64,000 nt of DNA from Octopus vulgaris (Eukaryota). How positions within the stretch are numbered: position 1 is the stretch's first letter; each line of letters opens with the position of its first letter. This document shows, one piece after another, positions 3,435-55,892 of the stretch. The stretch spans positions 12,090,001-12,154,000 of the forward strand of contig OX597826.1 of assembly GCA_951406725.2 (NCBI GenBank). Reading direction: 5' to 3'. The position numbers were made by a program, and so were the translations under genes. The notes under the pieces were generated by a model that did no database searches, had not been told where the DNA came from, and saw nothing but the letters and a program-made list of their open reading frames with translations.

Positions 3435-3443
<9 letters not shown>

Positions 3444-3722
3444 AGAGATAGCAGTCTCCATCATCACACCATATAAAAGAATTTTATTTTAATACTTACT
3501 ACTCATTTCTAAATTTCTCTGCTACACGTGTTTATCGAGGTTCTTTTACCGTTCCTTAAGCACGCAGTGTTTTACAGTAAGTATTAAAATACAATTCTTT
3601 TGTATGGTGTGATGATGGGGACTGCTATCTCTAAATAACATATATTTCCTCATTGTGAATAATTCCTTTTATTTGAATTCCTGTGATGCCGGAATTTTTA
3701 TTCCCTAATAAATAAAATAAAA
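3435..3722. mobile_element. fold-back PLE-like element between (TG)n and (TA)n
   Basis: Arms ~3435-3500/3576-3640, tail to ~3722; very degenerate HHR trace on minus at 3520-3562 (palindromic ACACGTGT). Confidence 0.7.
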
Positions 3723-3735
3723 TTATATATTATAC

Positions 3736-3825
<90 letters not shown>

Positions 3826-3826
<1 letters not shown>

Positions 3827-4103
3827 GGAGATGTACTTGCATAGCAAGTGATTTGATCTGAGATCGTGTGCTGGAACGAAAATAATTGCAGCGTGGAAGG
3901 TGTTTGTAAGCCATTTAAGAAACACACAAAAGCCGTTCGATTCACTTCAACATTTAAGTTTAATTTGTCGATTTTTGTCAGTGAACAGGTCGCGGATTTT
4001 AGCGACGAAAATATTTTAACAAATTAAACTTAAATGTTGAAGTGAATCGAACGTCTTTTGTGTGTTTCTTAAATGGCTTACAAACACATTCCACGCTACA
4101 ATT

Positions 4104-4106
<3 letters not shown>
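3826..4106. mobile_element. fold-back PLE-like element in (TA)n
   Basis: Tail 3826-3880, arms 3881-3969/4018-4106, HHR in spacer. Confidence 0.8.
3974..4023 (+). ncRNA. minimal hammerhead motif, G3-C8 variant
   Basis: TTTGTCA-GTGAACA-G-GTCGC/GGATTTTA/GCGAC-GAAA-ATAT-TT-TAACAAA. Confidence 0.65.
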
Positions 4107-4160
<54 letters not shown>

Positions 4161-4162
<2 letters not shown>

Positions 4163-6338: not shown

Positions 6339-6912
6339 GGGGGTGTGATTGTGTATAGAAGAATATATTAATAAAATGAATTCCAACCTTGTCTGATTTT
6401 CACGTTTTATTACAATCTTATAATGATATAAGATAATATAATATAATAAAATAAAATAAAATAATAGAATGTTAAATGTTCATTCTGATTGAATTAGTAT
6501 TTTCATGCATTAAATTCTGCAATCTTCAGGTTGATGTAGTTGTGGCGACAGTCATGATGATTGGTCTAGGCAATCAGCTCAACCAACCAATCAGCTTAAG
6601 TAATTGAGTGATACTACACACTGATTGATCAGAATACAGTTTGCAAACCCTAGCAATCTGGAGCCTTCACAGCTGTATTTAAGGCACAGATTCAATCATC
6701 TCGCTACAGTCAAAAATTGTGAAGCATGACTGTCACCACTACTACATGAACCTGAAGATTGCAGAATTTAATGCAGGAAAGTACTTGTTCAATCAGAATG
6801 AACATTTAACATTCTGTTATTTTATTTTATTATATTATATTATCTTATATCATTATAATATTGTAAATAAAACGTGAAAATCAGACAAGGTTGGAATTCC
6901 TTTTATTAATAT
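6338..6912. mobile_element. fold-back PLE-like element in (TA)n, HHR in each arm
   Basis: Tail 6338-6365, arms ~6366-6556/6726-6912. Confidence 0.85.
6747..6791 (+). ncRNA. minimal type-I hammerhead ribozyme, canonical core
   Basis: TGAAC-CTGAAGA-TTGCA/GAATTTAA/TGCAG-GAAA-GTAC-TT-GTTCA; mutated mirror copy on minus at ~6490-6535. Confidence 0.8.
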
Positions 6913-6925
6913 ATATATATATATA

Positions 6926-7336
6926 CAGGATTGGCTGTGTGGTAAGTAGCTTGCTAACCAACCACATGGGTCTGGGTTCAGTCCCACTGCGTGGCATCTT
7001 GGGAAAGTGTCTTCTGCTATAGCCCCGGGCCGACCAATGCCTTGTGAGTGGATTTGGTAGACGGAAACTGAAAGAAGCCTGTCGTATATATGTATATATA
7101 TATATGTATGTGTGTGTGTGTTTATGTGTCTGTGTTTGTTCCCCTAGCATTGCTTGACAACCGATGTTGGTGTGTTTACGTCCCCGTCACTTAGCGGTTC
7201 GGCAAAAGAGACCGATAGAATAAGTACTGGGCTTACAAAGAATAAGTTCCGGGGTCGATTTGCTCGACTAAAGGTGGTGCTCCAGCATGGCCGCAGTCAA
7301 ATGACTGAAACAAGTAAAAAAGTAAAGAGTAAAGAG
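6926..7336 (+). mobile_element. SINE family A
   Basis: tRNA-like head (TGGCTGTGTGGTAAG...GGGTTCAGTCCC), internal TA/TG tract, GAGTAAAA-type tail. Confidence 0.9.
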
Positions 7337-19854: not shown

Positions 19855-20263
19855 GGCGCAGGAGTGGCTGTGTGGTAAGTAGCTTCTTTACCAACCACAT
19901 GGTTCCGGGTTCAGTCCCACTGCGTGGCACCTTGGGCATGTGTGTTCTACTATAGCCTCGGGCCAACCAAAGCCTTGTTAGTGGATTTGGTAGACGGAAA
20001 CTGAAAAGAAGCCCGTCGTATATATGTATATATATATGTATGTGTGTGTGTGTTTGTCTGTATGTGTTTGTCCCCCTAGCATTGCTTGACAACCGATGCT
20101 GGTGTGTTTATGTCCCTGTTACTTAACGGTTCGGCAAAAGAGACCGATAGAATAAGTACTGGGCTTACAAAAGAATATGTCCCGGGGTCGAGTTGCTCGA
20201 TTACAGGCGGTGCTCCAGCATGGTCGCAGTCAAATGACTGAAACAAGTAAAAGAGTAAAAGAG
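19855..20263 (+). mobile_element. SINE family A, full length
   Basis: GGCGCAGGAGTGGCTGTGTGG...AAGTAAAAGAGTAAAAGAG. Confidence 0.9.
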
Positions 20264-20274
20264 TATATATATAT

Positions 20275-20545
20275 ATATTAATAAATGGAGTTTAACGCAA
20301 GTGTAATTCAAATACTTTTACTTCCGACACATGTTTCGAAACATCTGTCGGAAGTAAAAGTATTTGAATTATACCTGCGTTAAACTCCATTTATTAATAT
20401 ATTTATTATACAAAAACTTTCACGTAAACGCAAGGTTTCTACCTTTAAAAACAAGGAGTTTTTAACCTCTTTACTTGTGTGATTTTTGCAACCCTGGTAA
20501 CTATTTATCTATTTTTTCCGTGTGAATTGTTAGCAAGGGAAAAAT
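20275..20545. mobile_element. spacer-less fold-back PLE-like element
   Basis: Palindrome 20275-20400 centred at 20337/8 (TTTC|GAAA); arms start GAAA-CATSTG-TC-GGAAG (3' half of an HHR); tail on right. Confidence 0.75.
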
Positions 20546-21886: not shown

Positions 21887-24133
21887 TCGGATCGATAATA
21901 TCGAATAAACTGGTACATCAGAGGTGTGATGTTCTTAGTCAAAATATGAATGATGACGTTTGAAATGAAAATAAAAAGCTATTATAAGAAACATGATGTA
22001 GAATTATGTATAGATACCAATCACTATTGGATTTCGATTATTCTTTATCATGTTTCTACTTTCTTTCTATAACTTTTTATAGTCATTTTTGCGACGGTCT
22101 TGTGTATTTGATTAACCTAACACACTTTCTACTACGTTATCTTGTATAATCATATTCTGTGTTGTTTGAGCACCACAGTAAGGTATTCTAATTTGTCAGG
22201 ATTCTTACGGCTTTAATTCCAGATTTTCGAGCTTGAAAATGAATCACTCAAACACAAAAGTAGACTAAAATTAGAGACTATCAGACAGTTACCTAGTGGG
22301 TAATATTTTATATTTACGGACGATGAACTCACACAAAATTAAGTCTTTTAACAACTTTCATGATGCGAGCTAGATCTTCTGTAAATTATTCAAAGACACT
22401 TATTTTCTTCATTTTAATCTTTTCCATTGAGTTACATTATTTTGGCTACCTTCTATAGCCAGACAGGCGACTAAAATATATGAGATAATTACTTTAGTTG
22501 AATGCCAACGCTCGGACAATGACCTACGAGTCTGGATATTTTATTTTCGTCAAGTACTTTCTAAATACTATTTTTATTTTAAAGATGTTTGGTAAGGAAT
22601 CCATTTATTTTAAAATACAGAATTTTTTTTTTGCTCCCTCTCTGTTATATGACACACAAATAGTGACGAACAGTTAACTCGATAAAAAATGTACTCACTA
22701 GAGAATCCGTGACTATAGAAAGCAGAGAAGGCATTAATGTAGAATTGAACATGTTATGCTGAGAACTATTATACATATACAAAATGTTTTTCTAATTATT
22801 GATAACTCGAATATCTTCATCGCAAAAAAGTTATCATTTATCTATATTTTACTGTCCCTCATATATTCAAGATAAACATAATTCTATTTAGGTTCAACAA
22901 AGCTACATCTATAGACAGTCATATTGCAAGTGCAAGCAGTTATGATTAAATTATCCAGAACAACCTCTGCTTTCAATAGTTTTATTATCTTCCCGTTGTC
23001 ATCTAAAAGTACACAAATCTATTTTGTACGTATGCTTCTTCACCATTACTACTACGCTTGGCTTCCATGATTCGAAATAATTACAGATGGTTAACTGATG
23101 ATTGCACAAATAAAAAGATAAATAGCAAGAAGAAATAGAAACTCTACTGAACTTTATTCAGTCTTGTTGACTCCTTATATATATTTATGAAATTACAATG
23201 GCACTCCCCTAAAATATTTTTCATAGATGACGGATCCGGTAAAAAAATTAATGATCATAAACCTTACACATGATCACTTTTGTGCGTCTATATCGCAAAA
23301 GAAGCACTGTTAGGCAAAACGTTTGAAAACATATATAATCCACAGATAAAGAGCCCTTATAATATTGTTAAATGAGGTGCTCGGTTTATATATATATAAT
23401 ATATAATATATAATGCATACGAACACCAAATTGTGTACTTTTCTCTCCGAAACAGGAACTTAATGCCCAGCATGTTGTAGGTCATACTGGAAACTGTTAT
23501 ACTATATCAGAAACTGATATACTATATCAGAAACTATTATACTATATCACTTAATTGCTTTTGCTTCCAAATTTTTCCGACACTTCAGCATTGTTTCCTT
23601 TATCTTGTTGGTGACTTAAATGTCCATCTTCCATATAACGTGGAATTCTAAGCGAATGACCGGGATGAAAGCTTATTGTCTTTGCATTAGTGATTTAGAT
23701 ACCAAAGTTTCTAGAAGAGATAAGGGGATAAAATTGACTCTTCAAAATACGGACATACAGAATTTGCCACGTTTATTAATATCAGTCATTTGCTGCAAGG
23801 TGTGATTCTTACATATAACATCAGCTGAAAAACAGCACTTTGTCTATTCTGGAAAGCAGTGATGATTAAATTTTACATTTATCAAGTAGTGATCTAAAAT
23901 AATTTTAGTCATATAAATTAATATAATTCTTGCTTCAATGAAATTTATGTCAAGTTTGTTAGGCTTTGTGGTTTATATATATATATATATAGTCAATAAT
24001 AATAAGAGTAAAATTAATTAATTATTAATTAATAATTTACCAAGTAGTGTTGAGTATATAAAAAGACCATTTACGGTATATTTAAAACATTATGTTATAT
24101 AATTAGGGTAATTTTTTTTGCTGAACTCTAATT

Positions 24134-24177
<44 letters not shown>

Positions 24178-24922
24178 CTATGTACGTATGTATATATACA
24201 TACCTATATGTATATATAAACCATAAAGAGTAACAAACTACACATAAATTTCATTGAAGCAAGAATTATATTTATTCATAAAACTATTTTGCAAAAGTAT
24301 ATATATATATATCTATATGTGTGTGTGTGGGGTGTATGTATGTATATTTGTGTATGTATGCGTATATGTATATATGTTAGTTTATACCCCACTCCACACG
24401 AATATATATATACATATGTACATCCACAAACTTACGCATGCGCTTACATCATATACACATTGCCATAGACGCATATATACCACATCATGCTGTATCATGT
24501 AAATCAAAGGTAACTGTGAAATATCTTTAGCTTCCCATTAACACACATCAAATTTAATTGAAGGTTGCTTCTTTAAATAGAATTTGAAATTCCACCAATA
24601 CTAAGAGTTGAAGCATTTTTTAAGACTTTCTGATTGTCTTTGTCTTTTCGGGTGTCAAAATGTTCCCTTTTTGGTTTGTTATTGGAAATGTTACAACACA
24701 TTTTCATGATTCTTTCATTATTTGAACTACATTTCAAGCGTTGTCTCTATTCAAGGATTACTTTTACAAATATATGGAAACATCTGTATTCTCATTTTAT
24801 TATTTGAATAATTTATAAGTTTGAATTCCTGCATGATATATATATATCGCATTGAAACTACATTTTCCAAAATGCATGACGTTGTTGCATTTACAAAAAT
24901 ATTTTCCAGCAATTTAGAAAAT

Positions 24923-27811: not shown

Positions 27812-28093
27812 GATTCAGCTGAATTAGGCTCTTAAATTGAGGCACCTTGTTACGTCGGAATAATATGCACATCCAAACAATATCAATTGAATATCAACCT
27901 CTGTGCGGATGTGTTTGCACTTGATATTATTGCAGTGTATGCTGATAAGACGACCCAAATTATTGAAGAGACCCGAGAGACCCGCTCATGGTTTTGCAGA
28001 CATGCATTGTTATTTAAAAATACTTTCTCTAATATTTTCGAAGTGCAGATTCAAGGGTAGGTGAATAAAATATAAATGATGTACAAAGATGTA

Positions 28094-28478
28094 CAGGTGT
28101 CAATTCATTACGGCCGTTTCAAGCGACTCCTTTAATTGGTTAATGAAAGCATTACATCATTGCAAAGAAACCATTTTCGTCATAAAATTGCAAAAACTTC
28201 TAACACAAAGGACCAAGCAACTGCTTTCGCATATTCATATCATCAACTGGAGCCTATAGGCTATTTTCTAAGCTCACTTTGCCAAAGAAACAGCAGCAGA
28301 ACCAATATAAATATTTGAACCCAAATTAGTGATATGAATATGGGAAAACAGTTGGTGGGTCCTTTGTGTTTGAACTCTATGCAATCATCTGACAAAAGTG
28401 GCTTCTTTGTAATGGTGTAATGTTTTCATTAATCACTTAAAGGAGTCACTAGAAACGGCCTTAATGAATTGAGACCGG
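28094..28478. mobile_element. Tc1/mariner-type MITE with ~90 bp TIRs
   Basis: TA|CAGGTGTCAATTCATTACGGCCGTTTC ... GAAACGGCCTTAATGAATTGAGACCGG|TA. Confidence 0.8.
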
Positions 28479-28509
28479 TACAATTTTGTTATTCATTGTT
28501 ACTCTTTGT

Positions 28510-32938: not shown

Positions 32939-33689
32939 CTCTTCTATATTTCCATCAAACCTTCAGATTATAAATACGAGTGGACAAACAAAAGAAGCAG
33001 GCACTCAACACAATTGGTGAGAGTTATCTCGCTTGAAAAGCTAGGTTCTTGTGACGAGCTTACGAAACCTTAAGTTTCACGAGGCCGAATCTCAGATCAA
33101 TAATTTCTAAGTATATCTTCCTCTTCGGAGAAACTAAAAATATAATAAGAAACACAGAAACATTTCTGAGTCAAATTTTATTCACTTGACGATAGTGTTA
33201 ATGTTAGTACTTGGTTCTTCATCTCTCACATTTTTCATCTAAAAAAAAAAATAAAAAATTAAAATAAATGGCTGCAAGCGATTAGTTCAATAGTTTGGAC
33301 ATTTATGTGCTCTCTCCGTATTTCTCTGTGAATCTTATCAGCTTGTCGTTGTCTGTCTTTCGTGCTTTCTCTCTAGCTTTCTCCTCGTTTAGTCTCAGAT
33401 TTTAAGACGAGATACCAAACAAGAAGCTTATATTTGAATTTGTTTATTTCTTTTAATACATTTCTAGTTTATTGTTGATGCTAGTATAAATAATTTCAGC
33501 AGCAGAGCGATTGTAGGGGATGGGGGTTGTTCCAGAAAGCGGTTTTAATTTGTTTAAATCCGACAATAATCGGTGAATAATAGCAACATTATACTTCCAT
33601 TGTTGTCTCTGGCGGATTGTTTAGCTATCTTGAACTGTGACAAGTTTTCTCGATGGGAACAGATATATAGTAAATAGTAATATATATTA

Positions 33690-34103
33690 GTCGTAGGAGT
33701 GGCTGTGTGGTGAGTAGCTTGCTTACCAACCACATGGTTCCGGGTTAAGTCCCACTGCGTGGCACCTTGGGCAGGTGTATTCTACTACAGCCTCGGGCTG
33801 ACCAAAGCCTTGTGAGGGCATTTGGTAGACGGAAACTGAAAGAAGCCCGTCGTATATATGTATATATATATGTATGTGTGTGTGTATATGTTTGTGTGGC
33901 TGTGTCCCCCCACTCAACATTGCTTGACAACTGATGCTGGTGTGTTTACGTCCTCGTAACTTAGCGGTTCGGCAAAAGAAACCGATAGAATAAGTACTAG
34001 GCTTACAAAGAATAAGTCCTGGGGTCGATTTGCTCGACTAAAGGCGGTGCTCCAACATGGCCACTGTCAAATGACTGAAACAAGTAAAAGAGTAAAAGAG
34101 TAA
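33690..34103 (+). mobile_element. SINE family A
   Basis: Full copy. Confidence 0.9.
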
Positions 34104-34180
34104 ACTGAAATTTAAATCCGTATATAATGGTAATGGTGGCAGCTGCTCTTCCAATTGAACCAAAGAACCTATGCTCCCAT

Positions 34181-34392
34181 TACTCTTTTACTCTTTTACT
34201 TGTTTCAGTCATTTGACTGCGGCCATGTTGGAGCACCGCCTTTAGTCGAGCAAATCGACCCCGGGACTTATTCTTTGTAAGCCCAGTACTTATTCTATCG
34301 GTCTCTTTTGCCGAACCGCTAAGTTACGGGGACGTAAACACACCAGCATCGGTTGTCAAGCAATGCTAAGGGACAAACACAGACACACACAG

Positions 34393-34425
<33 letters not shown>

Positions 34426-34594
34426 CATATACGACAAGCTTCTTTCAGTTTCCGTCTACCAAATCCACCCAGAAAGCTTTGGTCGGCCCGAGGCTATAGT
34501 AGAATACACTTGCCCAAGATGCCACGCAGTGGGACTGAACCCGGAACCATGTGGCTGGTTAGCAAGCTACTTACCACACAGCCACTCCTGCGCC
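34181..34594 (-). mobile_element. SINE family A
   Basis: Full copy, inverted relative to its neighbour. Confidence 0.9.
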
Positions 34595-35424
34595 TGTTTA
34601 TTTTTTTTCTTCTTGCGTTGCTAGTAATACCTATGTGCCGTAATTCCTACCAGAAGTATCACCGTTTCTTCGGTGACGGGGCGGGATAAGAACTCAGAAT
34701 GAGCAGAGCCAGAACAGATACGACAATGAATCCCTTACAACATTCTACTAATTCTGGCAATCCTCTGCCCTAGATAGGTACTTTTTATCGACTTCAAAAA
34801 ATAAAGTTGACCTACATGGAATTCGAACTCAAATCCCAAAGTGTCGGAACAATTACTGCGTGACATCATTTTTTCTAACACACTAAAGACTCCAGCAATT
34901 CGCTACACATATAATATATGTCGGATTTAGGTTAAATGACAACTACTTTAAGGGGAGAGGACTTGTCGATATCATCAAACCCAGTACTAAGCAGGTGGTA
35001 TATTTCATCGACTTCGAGGGATCAAAGGTAAGGTTAACCATGGCGCGATTTGATCTCAGCATATAAGGAGCTGACAGAGGTACCATCAAGAAATTTTCCG
35101 TTCTTCTAACTATTCTACTGCCTATAGAATGATCTGAGCTATATTTTCAATTGTTTTGTCTTCTTATATGTTATTACAAACACTTGGCTAATTAGATTGA
35201 GATTGGTGAAGCAATTACAGGCTATTGAAGGAGGTTAAGAGTTTAAAAAATTCCAATCTTCCTCTCCGCACCGATGTGGTTAATATTTCCTTTGAAACGT
35301 TGTAATATTTCCTTTGAAACGCTGCAAAGAAATTGTTAGATGAGAGAAAAATCTGGAAAGCTGACTTTCTGTGGAGGTTTGGTTAGAACTTGTTAGTGGA
35401 GAAGGTAAAACAATATTAGTAGTT

Positions 35425-38264: not shown

Positions 38265-38270
<6 letters not shown>

Positions 38271-38885
38271 ATGGAAGAAATGGAGTTGAACGAAGATTGT
38301 ACAGAATTCCTTTTATTACATGTTCTACACATGTTTCAAAGGCCACAAATTTCCAAATTCTTATTAAATAAGGGTACCATATTGTGGCTTTCTCTTCAGG
38401 AAAAAAACAGAATTCCGTTGACAGAACAAAACAAAACAGAGGCGCAGCAACGCAATTCGAACGAGGACGCTCCTTAAGAGCCCATGGCTGAACCCATGAG
38501 TTCAGCCATGGGCTCTTAAGGAGCGTCCTCGTTCGAATTGCGTTGCTGCGCCTCTGTTTTGTTTTGTTCTGTCAACGGAATTCCTGTTTTTTCCTGAAGA
38601 GAAAGCCACAATATGGTACCCTTATTTAATAAGAATTTGGAAATTTGTGGCCTTTGAAACATGTGTAGAATGTAATAAAAGGAATTCTGTACAATCTTCG
38701 TTCAACTCCATTTCTTCCATTCACTAATAATATTAAACTTCAATTATCCGCACCAACGCGCGGTTGCAACACCAAATGGTCTTATCTCCAACCGTGCTTT
38801 TTTCTGCTGTGATTTTTGCTACCCAGGTATCGGTTAAACTTTTGAATAATCTGTAACAAGAAAATTCATCTTTCTATTTCAACAA
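38265..38885. mobile_element. young spacer-less fold-back PLE-like element in (TA)n
   Basis: ~460 bp near-perfect palindrome 38265-38726 centred at 38496/7; tail to 38885. Confidence 0.9.
38591..38670 (+). ncRNA. hammerhead motif with extended stem II
   Basis: TTC-CTGAAGA-GAAAGCCACAA...TTGTGGCCTTT-GAAA-CATGTG-TA-GAA; mirror copy on minus at ~38323-38402. Confidence 0.65.
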
Positions 38886-38902
38886 ATATATATATATATA
38901 TA

Positions 38903-39395
38903 TAAAAACATGATGCGAAGGATTCAGCGGTACATATGTTTCGGGCCTTTATTAGACAGATTTATAACAATGCATAATGTATGTCTGTGGCCTTCTTCAG
39001 CCGCGCACAACAGCTTCCACAAGGACATGTGTTACATCAAAAATTCTTGGTTGGGGATGCAAATCCTCTCATTCGCGTACGACATAATGCGGCAGCGGCA
39101 TAGAATTGAAGCGTCCATCTCTTTCTCTCATTCGCGTACGACATAATGCGGCAGCGGCATAGAATTGAAGCGTCCATCTCTTTTCTTATAAGAAAGAGAT
39201 GGACGCTTCAATATATATAAGAATGAAAATTGTTGTGCGCGGCTGAAGAAGGCCACAGACATACATTATGCATTGTTATAAATCTGTCTAATAAAGGCCC
39301 GAAACATATGTACCGCTGAATCCTTCGCATCATGTTTTTATTTTATTTTGATCAATTTACTCCACCACCTACACCACCAAACGGTATACACAGGT
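38903..39395. mobile_element. fold-back PLE-like element in (TA)n
   Basis: Arms ~38903-39012/39231-39341, rearranged spacer, tail to ~39395. Confidence 0.9.
39239..39316 (+). ncRNA. type-I hammerhead ribozyme, canonical core, extended stem II
   Basis: GCGG-CTGAAGA-AGGCCACAGA...TCTGTCTAATAAAGGCCC-GAAA-CATATG-TA-CCGC; mirror copy on minus at 38927-39004. Confidence 0.8.
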
Positions 39396-47881: not shown

Positions 47882-48584
47882 CCTCCTTCTTCCCTTCTTT
47901 CCTTTTTTCTTTCCTCATGAACGAATAGTAGGCAGGCAATCTCTTTTAACCTGGAGTCATTGTTTATCATTCTGTGAGCTTATCTCGCGACAGAAAGGTG
48001 TTGTGGCTTGCTACTCGCAGTCCCGAATATTTCATCAGATTAGTGCTTTTGTGTGGTCGTTCGAGTTCAATTTTGGCTCTAATTTCTAGCAAATATAGGT
48101 GTTACTTTGCACGCTCATTTATTAATTTTCCCTTTTTGGCTTTACTTGACTTAGCCACCTATATTATAAATTATCTAATATATTTTAATATCCTAATATA
48201 CTATTATAATATCTTATCGTTTTACTATATATATATACATATTTAAAGGTACCTTTAAAAGTTGTTTATATATACATTCATATATATATGCACCACCCCT
48301 CAATTACTACCCACCCCACTCCTACTCCTCTCCCAACTCTCCACCTCTTCCACTGCCTCCTTAATACTCTTTTTATGAACCCCACCTCTTCCTAAACGGA
48401 CTCTCTTATCCCTTCTTGCTTTTCCCTGCGCAACCCCCACACCATCACAAGACAACCGATGTTGGTGTGTCTACGTCCCTATGACTTAGCGGTTCGGCAA
48501 AACAAACAGATATTATAAGTACTAGACTTACAATGATTAAGTCCTGGGGTCGATTTGTTCGACTAAAGGTGGTACTCCAGCATG

Positions 48585-48817
48585 TATTTCTTTACTACCC
48601 ACAAGGGGCTAAACACAGAGGGGACAAACAAGGACAGACAAACGGATTAAGTCGATTACATCGACCCCAGTGCGTAACTGGTACTTAATTTATCGACCCC
48701 GAAAGGATGAAAGGCAAAGTCAACCTCGGCGGAATTTGAACTCAGAACGTAACGGCAGACGAAATACCGCTAAGCATTTCGCCCGGCATGCTAACGTTTC
48801 TGCCAGCTCGCCGCCTG
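48585..48817 (-). mobile_element. SINE family B nested in a family A 3' fragment (48450-48850)
   Basis: Family A sequence CTCCAGCATG|GTCGCAG is split by the B copy. Confidence 0.85.
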
Positions 48818-49140
48818 GTCGCAGCCCAATGACTGAACCAAATAAAAGAATAATAGAATTGAACCTAGATAGATTCCCATCTACCTGTGTTCAAGTGATA
48901 CCGTTCAGGTTTTCTAACCAACATTTTATGTTGCTTTGTTCCAAATCGTTTCCACTCCAGTAGACAGGTGATGAAGACTGTTCTAGCTTTTACTGACCTG
49001 TCTTTATTTTAGATACGATTTATCTGGGATCGCATTGTCAAGAATACCTTTTTAAAACTGTAAGGTGTGATGTGGGGAAGATGTTACAATAATACTGTAC
49101 GTCAAATTTCGAGCAACAGATTCAAGATTCCCTAAACAGG

Positions 49141-49609
49141 TACTCTCTTTTACTCTTTTACCTGTTTCAGTCATTTGACTGCGGCCATACTGGAGCACCG
49201 CCTTTTTTTAGTCAAGCAAATCGACCCCAGGATTTATTCTTTGTAAGCCTAGTACTTATTCTATCCGTATGTTTTGCCGAACTGCTAAGTTACGGGGACG
49301 TAAACACATCAGCATCGATTGTCAAGCGTAGTTGGGGGGACAAATACAGACACACAAACACACACACACAAACCAACACACACACACACACAAACGCACA
49401 CAGACACTCACACACACTCACACACACATATATATATATACATGTACATATATACGACAGACTTCTTTCAGTTTCCATCTATCAAATCCACTCACAAGGC
49501 TTTGGTCGGCCCGAGGCTATAGTAGAAAACACTTTCCCAAAGTTCCACGCAGTGGGAGTGAACCCGGAACCATGTGGTTGGTAAGCAAGCTACTTACCAC
49601 ACAGCCACG
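49141..49609 (-). mobile_element. SINE family A
   Basis: Similarity to consensus. Confidence 0.9.
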
Positions 49610-54419: not shown

Positions 54420-54650
54420 AAGGCGGTGAGCTGGCAGAGACGTTAGCACGCCGGGCGAAATGCTCAGCAGTATTTCGTCGGTCGCTACGTTCTGAGTTCA
54501 AATTCCGCCAAGGTCGACTTTGCTTTCATCCTTTTGGGGTCGATTAAATAAGTACCAGTTACGCACCGGGGTCGATATAGTCGACTTAATCCGTTTGTCT
54601 GTCCTTGTTTGCCCTCTGTGTTTAGCTCCTTGTGGGTAGTAAAGAAATAG
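54420..54650 (+). mobile_element. SINE family B
   Basis: TSD GTAATACGGAC at 54405/54650. Confidence 0.9.
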
Positions 54651-55424
54651 TAATACGGACAATTGGCTACTATTGTTTTGTACAATAAGGGACTACGTAG
54701 AAGCTTACTTGAAGATATCTTGATTATTGTTGCCGTGGTTACCACTATTATTTTTATTACTGCTGCTGCTGCTTCTACTATTGCAGCTGTTGCGATAAAT
54801 ATTTCCCTCGTAGCTTTTGTTAGAGCTGAAATTTATTGCTGTTATTCATGTTAGTTTTACTGATTTTTTTCCCTTGTCATCCTTGATTCAAAGGGCCTGG
54901 CTTCAAAATCATTCCAGCCGGTGCAAGACGACTTCTTCCTTTTACGGTTATGTGATGATTAAATTAACCACTGTGTCCTCTCACAATATATGTTGGTAGA
55001 ATGCGATATTATGGAGATTTAGCTGCTACTCCCAGAAATTCTGGCAACCACGTAGAGATTTCCTTGATACTTCAGTAGGTTATTCAAGTCTAGGTCAGCT
55101 ATGATAATGCACAAAGGATTTCCAGTTAGGATTAAACCATATTTGCGTATACCAGGGACTACCATATCTAATATATTCTTCCTTATATTTGGACGCCGGA
55201 CATAATCCGCAGGTTATCTTGTAGCAGGCCGAGGAAGGACGTGGAGGTACTTACGTTTTTCCGTTCTTGTAACAGTTAGTGTGTCGAACAAAGCCCCTTG
55301 CGATATTTAAATACGATTCTTTACTTTCTTAGTCTATTCATATATCACCGATGTTGATTTTGCGTTTCATCAATAAAATAAGTAGCAGTTTAATACTAAA
55401 TACTAGTTTCAAATTTTGGCACAA

Positions 55425-55892
55425 GAACTCAGAACGCAGCAGACGAAATACCGCGAAGCCCGGCCTGCTAACGTTTCTTATTTCTTTATAGCCCACAAGG
55501 GGCTAAACATAGAGGGAACAAACAAGGACAGAGAAACGGATTAAGTCGATATCGACCCCAGTGCGTAACTGGTACTTATTTAATTGACCCCGAAAGGATG
55601 AAAGGCAAAGTCGACCTTTGCGGAATTTGAACTCAGAACGCAACGGCGGACGAAATACCTATTTCTTTATCACCCACAAGGGGCTAAACATAGAGGGGAC
55701 AAACAAGGACAGAAATTGGTATTAAGTCGATTACATCGACCCCAGTGCGTAACTGGTATTTAATTTATCGACCCCGAAAGGATGAAAGGCAAAGTCGACC
55801 TCGGCGGAATTTGAACTCAGAACGTAACGGCAGACGTTATACCGCTTCGCATTTCGCCCGGCGCGCTAACGTTTCTGCCAGCTCACCACCTT
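55425..55892 (-). mobile_element. SINE family B multimer (two units plus partial third)
   Basis: Junctions at ~55660 and ~55478. Confidence 0.85.

Follow-up and report, generated by a model that had tools for sequence, protein, structure and literature searches.

The inverted element at positions 3827-4107 of the window, that is, of the whole stretch of 64,000 nucleotides of Octopus vulgaris DNA analysed here, is a known kind of insertion, a head-to-head pLTR stub of a Penelope-like retroelement (PLE), with a variant ribozyme. Its structure, the one-sided tail, the distribution of start sites in the family, an extra G at the start of many copies, the concordance of the two arms and a peak of solo copies at the predicted ribozyme cut were observed directly. 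The explanation that seems best, and in which we place more confidence than doubt, is that the head-to-head pLTR stubs of this GIY-YIG PLE likely consist of two target-primed cDNAs of one source RNA joined together, that the junction in the window lies by the cleavage site likely by chance, and that a minority of templates were likely cut.

Positions within the family are numbered so that q1 corresponds to window position 3970 and q48 to 4017, negative values lying upstream, in longer copies; a real copy (L006) served as the alignment reference, and the genome searched comprised 2.8 Gb in 227 contigs. The element, which occupies both strands, is inserted in a (TA)n target, seen as runs at 3742-3826 on the left and 4108-4161 on the right, and a TSD is unreadable inside such a repeat. 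The minus-strand arm (3827-3969) corresponds to q49-q191 by alignment to L006 and ends in a tail of ~53 nt (3827-3879, q139-191), which is present on one arm only and was delimited from the two clusters of 3' ends and the one-tailed pairs found in the family. The plus-strand arm (3970-4107, q1-q138 by the same alignment) is tail-less. The two meet head to head at 3969/3970 with 0-1 nt of microhomology and differ at 5 of ~90 sites. The first-pass annotation was right that the minus-strand arm starts at 3969, 1 nt past the predicted start of the 3' cleavage product at 4017, and that the opposite arm retains the entire, uncut hammerhead. The term "fold-back" that it used is a misnomer, since each arm has sequence missing from the other, the tail in one case and the ribozyme in the other, and neither is therefore a copy of the other. 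A reading frame that begins with an ATG at q105 runs through the tail (window 3827-3913, minus strand, q105-191, read by eye); this is possibly the ORF start of an autonomous partner, and among 170 tail ends none was found to continue into an ORF.

The family is represented by 3919 exact core matches in the genome. In a position-unbiased sample, the first 100 of these matches by position led to 87 fetched loci, which were reduced to 79 after 8 overlaps had been dropped and which contain 121 arms; the core is covered by 107 of these. The head-to-head arrangement was found in 38 of the 79 loci, and head-to-tail full units, the tandem monomers typical of retrozymes, in none of them. The 3' ends of the arms form two clusters, at q133-140 (47/121) and at q190-191 (64/121); of the 98 pairs in which both ends could be mapped, 88 combine one tailed and one tail-less arm. 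Three long copies (L164, L166 and L174) contain the end of an ORF upstream on the same strand, separated from the pLTR by ~0.9 kb of non-coding sequence. The ORF stretch of L174, which is absent from the window copy itself, matches the GIY-YIG domain (PF01541) with 25.8 bits at a cut-off of 22.6. The long copies end before an RT region; of 16 homologs of 325-799 aa, three were scanned with Pfam, which matched no domain in any of them, and a PDB sequence search yielded nothing significant.

As judged by sequence and pairing, the plus-strand arm contains a predicted minimal type I hammerhead at 3974-4023. It comprises stem I (3974-3980/4017-4023, with a C-A mismatch at 4018 in the window copy), the core GTGAACA with the G3-C8 pair (3981-3987), an extra G after A9 (3988), a stem II of 5 bp (3989-3993/4002-4006), GAAA (4007-4010) and a palindromic helix III (4010-4015). 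H17 is the U at 4016, within a UUU triplet. The register is fixed by stem I, which places the predicted cut between 4016 and 4017 on the plus strand, with the 3' product beginning at 4017 (q48). The G3-C8 pair is fixed in the family (G3 in 90 of 91 arms, C8 in 91 of 92), and the core is not more conserved than its flanks (13/1144 versus 73/6856 changes). The single-strand folding z-scores are weak (-1.7 and -1.3). Among the 150 of 174 Rfam matches listed there is no hammerhead; only miRNA families were matched, none at the gathering score, and these matches fall over microsatellites and palindromes. In some copies (L466, L502 and L448) (TA)n has expanded internally from the ATAT of helix III and disrupts the ribozyme. 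A natural G3-C8 hammerhead was not found in the openly accessible papers searched, and supplements may list natural variants; in connection with Penelope, the combination G3-C8 (C3G-G8C) was met only as an engineered variant of Poseidon_Ac, in the accessible text of PMC11167929.

The distribution of 5' starts points to an upstream origin for most copies. Of the 107 arms covering the core, 16 start at q-24 or earlier, 47 at q-15 to q-4, 27 at q-3 to q11, 12 at q12-45, 1 at q46-50 and 4 at q51-63. The whole core is thus kept in 90 arms (start at q11 or earlier), and only one arm starts within 2 nt of the site. The commonest single start in short copies is q-11 (14/121), ~58 nt upstream of the cut, in the context TCAG, which we take to be initiator-like. 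An extra G stands at the 5' end of 438 of 1013 arms genome-wide that read from q-11, at a place where the template has C or T; the first 30 of the 1013 matches have G in 8 cases, C or T in 22 and A in none. Among solo copies, the extra G is present in 6/6 of those starting at q-11 and in 13/17 of those starting at q-16 to q-10. At full-length 5' junctions of L1 an extra G has been read as a trace of the mRNA cap (PMC11702581, in the part available), and by analogy the G at q-11 fits a cap. It need not be one, given that the R2 RT adds non-templated G and T, according to the available portion of PMC13000458. That the G comes from an upstream exon joined by splicing is disfavoured, nothing being shared beyond the single G; a motif resembling a splice site remains, and in L006 the stretch q-30 to q-9, at the main start site, also resembles a branch point, a pyrimidine tract and an AG acceptor followed by an ATG. 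In D. virilis Penelope the intron is described as ending at helix I (PMC4209133, accessible text). The whole core in 90 of 107 unbiased arms and the upstream peak marked by the extra G suggest that the majority of templates probably carried a cap and had not been cut, and that such RNA is the likely source of most copies. The breakpoints, when mapped relative to the cut as the first-pass annotation had suggested, are indeed non-uniform, but the main peak is this upstream start and not the NUH site.

The same annotation had taken the position of the window junction as a sign that the RNA template was made by self-cleavage. The junction was compared with others of its class, defined as a truncated arm joined to a partner reaching q-7; of 116 such junctions the first 100 were used. 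Breakpoints over q40-62 carry a total junction weight of 84.8, of which 11.0 fall at q47-49 against 11.1 expected, so the distribution is flat, without an excess at the site. In the wider interval q46-50 the count is 22.9 versus 18.4 expected (p 0.15; p 0.036 under the furthest-match convention, which is one of eight window tests). The Poisson upper bound at q47-49, 18.2 versus 11.1 expected, allows that up to ~40% of the site-proximal junctions of the class could still have been made by cleavage. Strictly, the partner arm of the window copy starts at q1, and the copy belongs to a related list of 132 junctions; the first 30 of these include 7 at q48-49 and 6 at q60, and 3 of the 7 are joined through the 7-nt repeat of stem I, which coincides with the cut by construction. 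A further search, in which 100 of 364 rows were scored by eye and 61 kept, rows with internal indels or with ends from q63 onwards being left out, gave 14 at q47-49 versus 11.4 expected and no peak. A search with 944 matches was excluded from the counts, being dominated by one inherited junction within a larger repeat (14 of 14 loci inspected). That junction, q15 / q-5, is a passenger with identical flanks in the larger repeat (L179-L207, for example G000:C1:4383194-4383286) and makes up most of the first 100 of the 944 matches.

With a flat distribution in the class, the junction at 3969 says nothing about cleavage and probably falls beside the predicted cut by chance. It seems unlikely, though worth weighing, that the RNA from which the tail-bearing arm of the window was copied had nevertheless cut itself. 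That template could have been another RNA from the same source, or one RNA could have served both arms and been cleaved after the first round of reverse transcription and before the second. Such an origin would agree with an arm that starts 1 nt after the site, with the cleaved-like solo copies of the family described below and with some head-to-head copies in which both arms lack the ribozyme and start at q47-48 (L504, L505, L507 and L509-L511, selected for this property). It would also agree with the truncated arm being the tailed one in 68 of 100 junctions of the class, and with the Poseidon_Ac ribozyme, which needs protein in vitro and may act late in the cycle, as stated in the consulted part of PMC11167929. 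Against it stand the absence of an excess at the site in the class, the uncut partner arm, the usual derivation of both arms from one source, and the fact that U48 itself is missing from the arm. In one further copy (L512, G000:C3:32309757) one arm is without exactly q1-q48, the upstream leader being fused to the 3' product side; a skip of the RT across the base of stem I is possible there.

The second junction that had been cited in favour of cleavage belongs to a different family. The element at 20263-20411 is a head-to-head stub whose hammerhead has a C3-G8 core and a long stem II. Its centre was correctly seen to lie by the GAAA, being at 20337/20338, just before it, within a TTCGAA palindrome native to this second family; the position given for it, 20275, is near the left end of the element. 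The predicted cuts, after 20349 on the plus strand and after 20326 on the minus strand, are both retained uncut: 12 nt 5' of the scissile bond are kept on both arms, so both templates were uncut, and the example argues against the reading by self-cleavage. In a sample of 30 arms from 176 matches of this family, the alignment places no start within 2 nt of the cut; in four arms (L225, L226, L228 and L229) the start lies within helix III, 5-7 nt before the predicted cut, that of L229 being ambiguous and 1-2 nt upstream of the cut when read by eye. Neither cited junction, 3969 or 20337/20338, is evidence for cleavage, the first belonging to a flat class and having an uncut partner arm, the second being uncut on both arms and of the C3-G8 type; the window junction is an ordinary one. 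The window contains further PLE-type inverted elements with C3-G8 cores, at 6350-6927, 38265-38726 and 38902-39341, which have the hammerhead core on both arms, in agreement with the earlier remark that they invert upstream of the ribozyme. The element at 38265 is a near-perfect palindrome of 462 bp, and the arms at 38902 and 39231 are 100% identical over 111 nt. Inverted repeats without a clear hammerhead core are found at 2499-2668, 3436-3640, 23906-24286, 28075-28497, 33689-34595, 48451-49323 and 54420-55892.

The two arms of a pair generally share their subfamily. Among 136 pairs, four subfamily sites are discordant between the arms in 3/99, 3/110, 5/91 and 10/109 cases (3-9%), compared with 35-50% in random pairs and a background of 2.9%; a fifth site, a CpG, is discordant in 17/114 versus 20%. 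Arms copied from independent RNAs of a mixed pool are thereby rejected as a rule. Gene conversion between the arms is disfavoured, with 10 rare mutations shared and 224 unshared. Time-structured subfamilies could also produce the concordance. Within one subfamily, q112 is discordant in 7/55 pairs (13%, versus 39% in random pairs and 3% background), and this excess over the background means that some pairs may use two RNAs. The sequences lead us to propose a common source for the two cDNAs, either a single capped RNA or transcripts of one locus. A true fold-back, by self-priming on an antisense template, as was proposed for Adineta PLEs (PMC3846280, in the text available), would also place alleles common to both arms and is in keeping with the palindromes at junctions (20337/20338; q39-48). 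It is very improbable here. Neither arm contains the other, either arm can extend further 5' (8 versus 7 of 38 pairs), and the extra G stands at the sense 5' end, in tail-less arms as well (20 of 28 arms starting at q-11), which speaks against antisense self-priming.

A different picture emerges from solo copies that abut (TA)n. In a partial sample, 100 of 377 rows gave 32 loci, of which 26 were kept as solos by eye; none starts at q40-46 and 25 start at q47-62, with 7 of the 25 at q47-49 (p 0.17 versus downstream). In one subfamily searched over the whole genome, 57 rows gave 23 loci, and 21 solos were left after two had been dropped, one inverted and one with an internal TA expansion; a second copy with an internal TA expansion was kept among the 21. 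The apparent starts are q48 in eight, q47 in four, q49 in one, q46 in one and q36-42 in seven. According to the TA phase, a copy that truly begins at q48 will appear to start at 48 or at 47, so 12 of the 21 are compatible with a start at the first base after the cut (14.3% expected under the null, p 6e-6). The same fit is seen in 10/16 solos outside the partial sample, or 10/17 with the internal expansion. The 12 copies have independent flanks and all lack the extra G, which all six solos starting at q-11 carry (p 5e-5). The excess over downstream positions is ~2.7-fold (p 0.02), measured against a rough baseline, and the class was chosen post hoc and is small, 12 copies versus ~3900 arms. Ends upstream of the site may be drawn into head-to-head joints by the 10-nt palindrome at q39-48, which would leave too few of them on the side used for comparison.

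The solo class is open to structural explanations. The ends at q47-49, the solo peak included, would in that case reflect arrest of the RT at the boundary between stem I and the core, microhomology of stem I, or a nuclease acting in the AT-only palindrome q39-48. Stem I by definition ends at the cut; of the first 100 short-gap junctions, 9 are joined through the 7-nt stem I repeat and ~8 through a repeat within the uncut core, as counted by eye; and solo ends also accumulate at q52 and q54. There is no step in the overall truncation rates, which for all classes are roughly ~64 per position at q36-46 upstream of the site and 58 at q47-62 (30 of 362 and 30 of 364 loci). We nevertheless consider processing of this kind improbable as the source of the peak. 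The solos joined to (TA)n are without stem I microhomology; the 4-nt TA microhomology at q42-45 should be favoured by such joining, yet it accounts for 4/21 starts versus 12/21 at the site; and the T-runs that remain (one T in eight, two in four, three in one) fit a fixed end at q48 in either TA phase. Ribozyme cleavage is the simplest explanation of the class, and it suggests that the ribozyme with the swapped G3-C8 core sometimes cuts in the cell and that a minority of the family templates was likely self-cleaved. The claim that the G3-C8 ribozyme was active in vivo thus gains indirect support from copies other than those cited for it, and the original inference is partly supported, in its general conclusion and not through its junctions.

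The preferred explanation, two joined cDNAs of one source RNA, implies the following course of events. The endonuclease would nick both strands of (TA)n. The usual template would be made by Pol II in sense orientation, with a start near q-11 and a cap that gives rise to the extra G; one RT start would lie at q136-138, the other at q191. The two cDNA 3' ends would then be trimmed and joined, often via microhomology. A small share of templates would be self-cleaved after U17 and would yield uncapped copies starting at q48. For Poseidon_Ac, work in vitro has shown that reverse transcription starts at two sites and that its main substrate is uncut RNA (PMC11167929, accessible portion). A more specific form of this model, to which we give slightly less than even credence, is that templates with two kinds of 5' end are preserved in the family, some capped, of sense orientation and starting near q-11, others uncapped and beginning exactly at the cut of a natural G3-C8 hammerhead, and that each head-to-head copy arose when a single capped sense RNA was reverse transcribed two times, from two internal sites, and not through an antisense fold-back.

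The insertions resemble those of EN+ PLEs of the Pen2a_Av type, as far as the available text of PMC3846280 and PMC8557442 describes them, in the head-to-head 5'-truncated pLTRs, the one-sided tail, the AT-rich target, the Inr-like site in the pLTR and the C-terminal GIY-YIG. They differ from Pen2a_Av (PMC3846280, same text) in the tail, ~53 nt here and 30-40 there, and in that the copies here are mostly pLTR-only stubs. With Poseidon_Ac of the green anole they share a tail probably set by two RT starts, probable cutting in AT-rich DNA and, as the likely main substrate, uncut RNA; there the natural core is C3-G8, G3-C8 is an engineered partial rescue and, in the part of PMC11167929 consulted, no reads end at the cut, whereas here G3-C8 is natural and a minority of genomic copies start at the cut. 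The minimal type I hammerheads of metazoan PLEs (PMC4209133, in its accessible text) are alike in the short palindromic helix III, the extra base after A9, the G10.1-C11.1 pair and the location in the pLTR, but have C3-G8, with a U3-A8 variant described, in place of G3-C8 with a UUU triplet. Metazoan non-LTR retrozymes (PMC7229834; 10.64898/2026.07.22.740005; both as partly available) are likewise short non-coding units with a type I hammerhead and are kin to PLE pLTRs; the units here are inverted and start upstream of the ribozyme, and do not form cut-bounded tandem monomers.

Judging from listings of the openly accessible literature alone, no work was found that maps PLE truncations to the ribozyme cut. 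The family bears on two questions, the activity of PLE hammerheads in vivo and the choice of strand that is copied into inverted insertions. Thousands of short, young copies in this genome make template ends countable at exact positions, q-11 for the presumed capped end and q48 for the predicted 5'-OH end. If the interpretation given here is true, the solo copies beginning at q48 would record, in the genome, cleavage by a PLE ribozyme in vivo.
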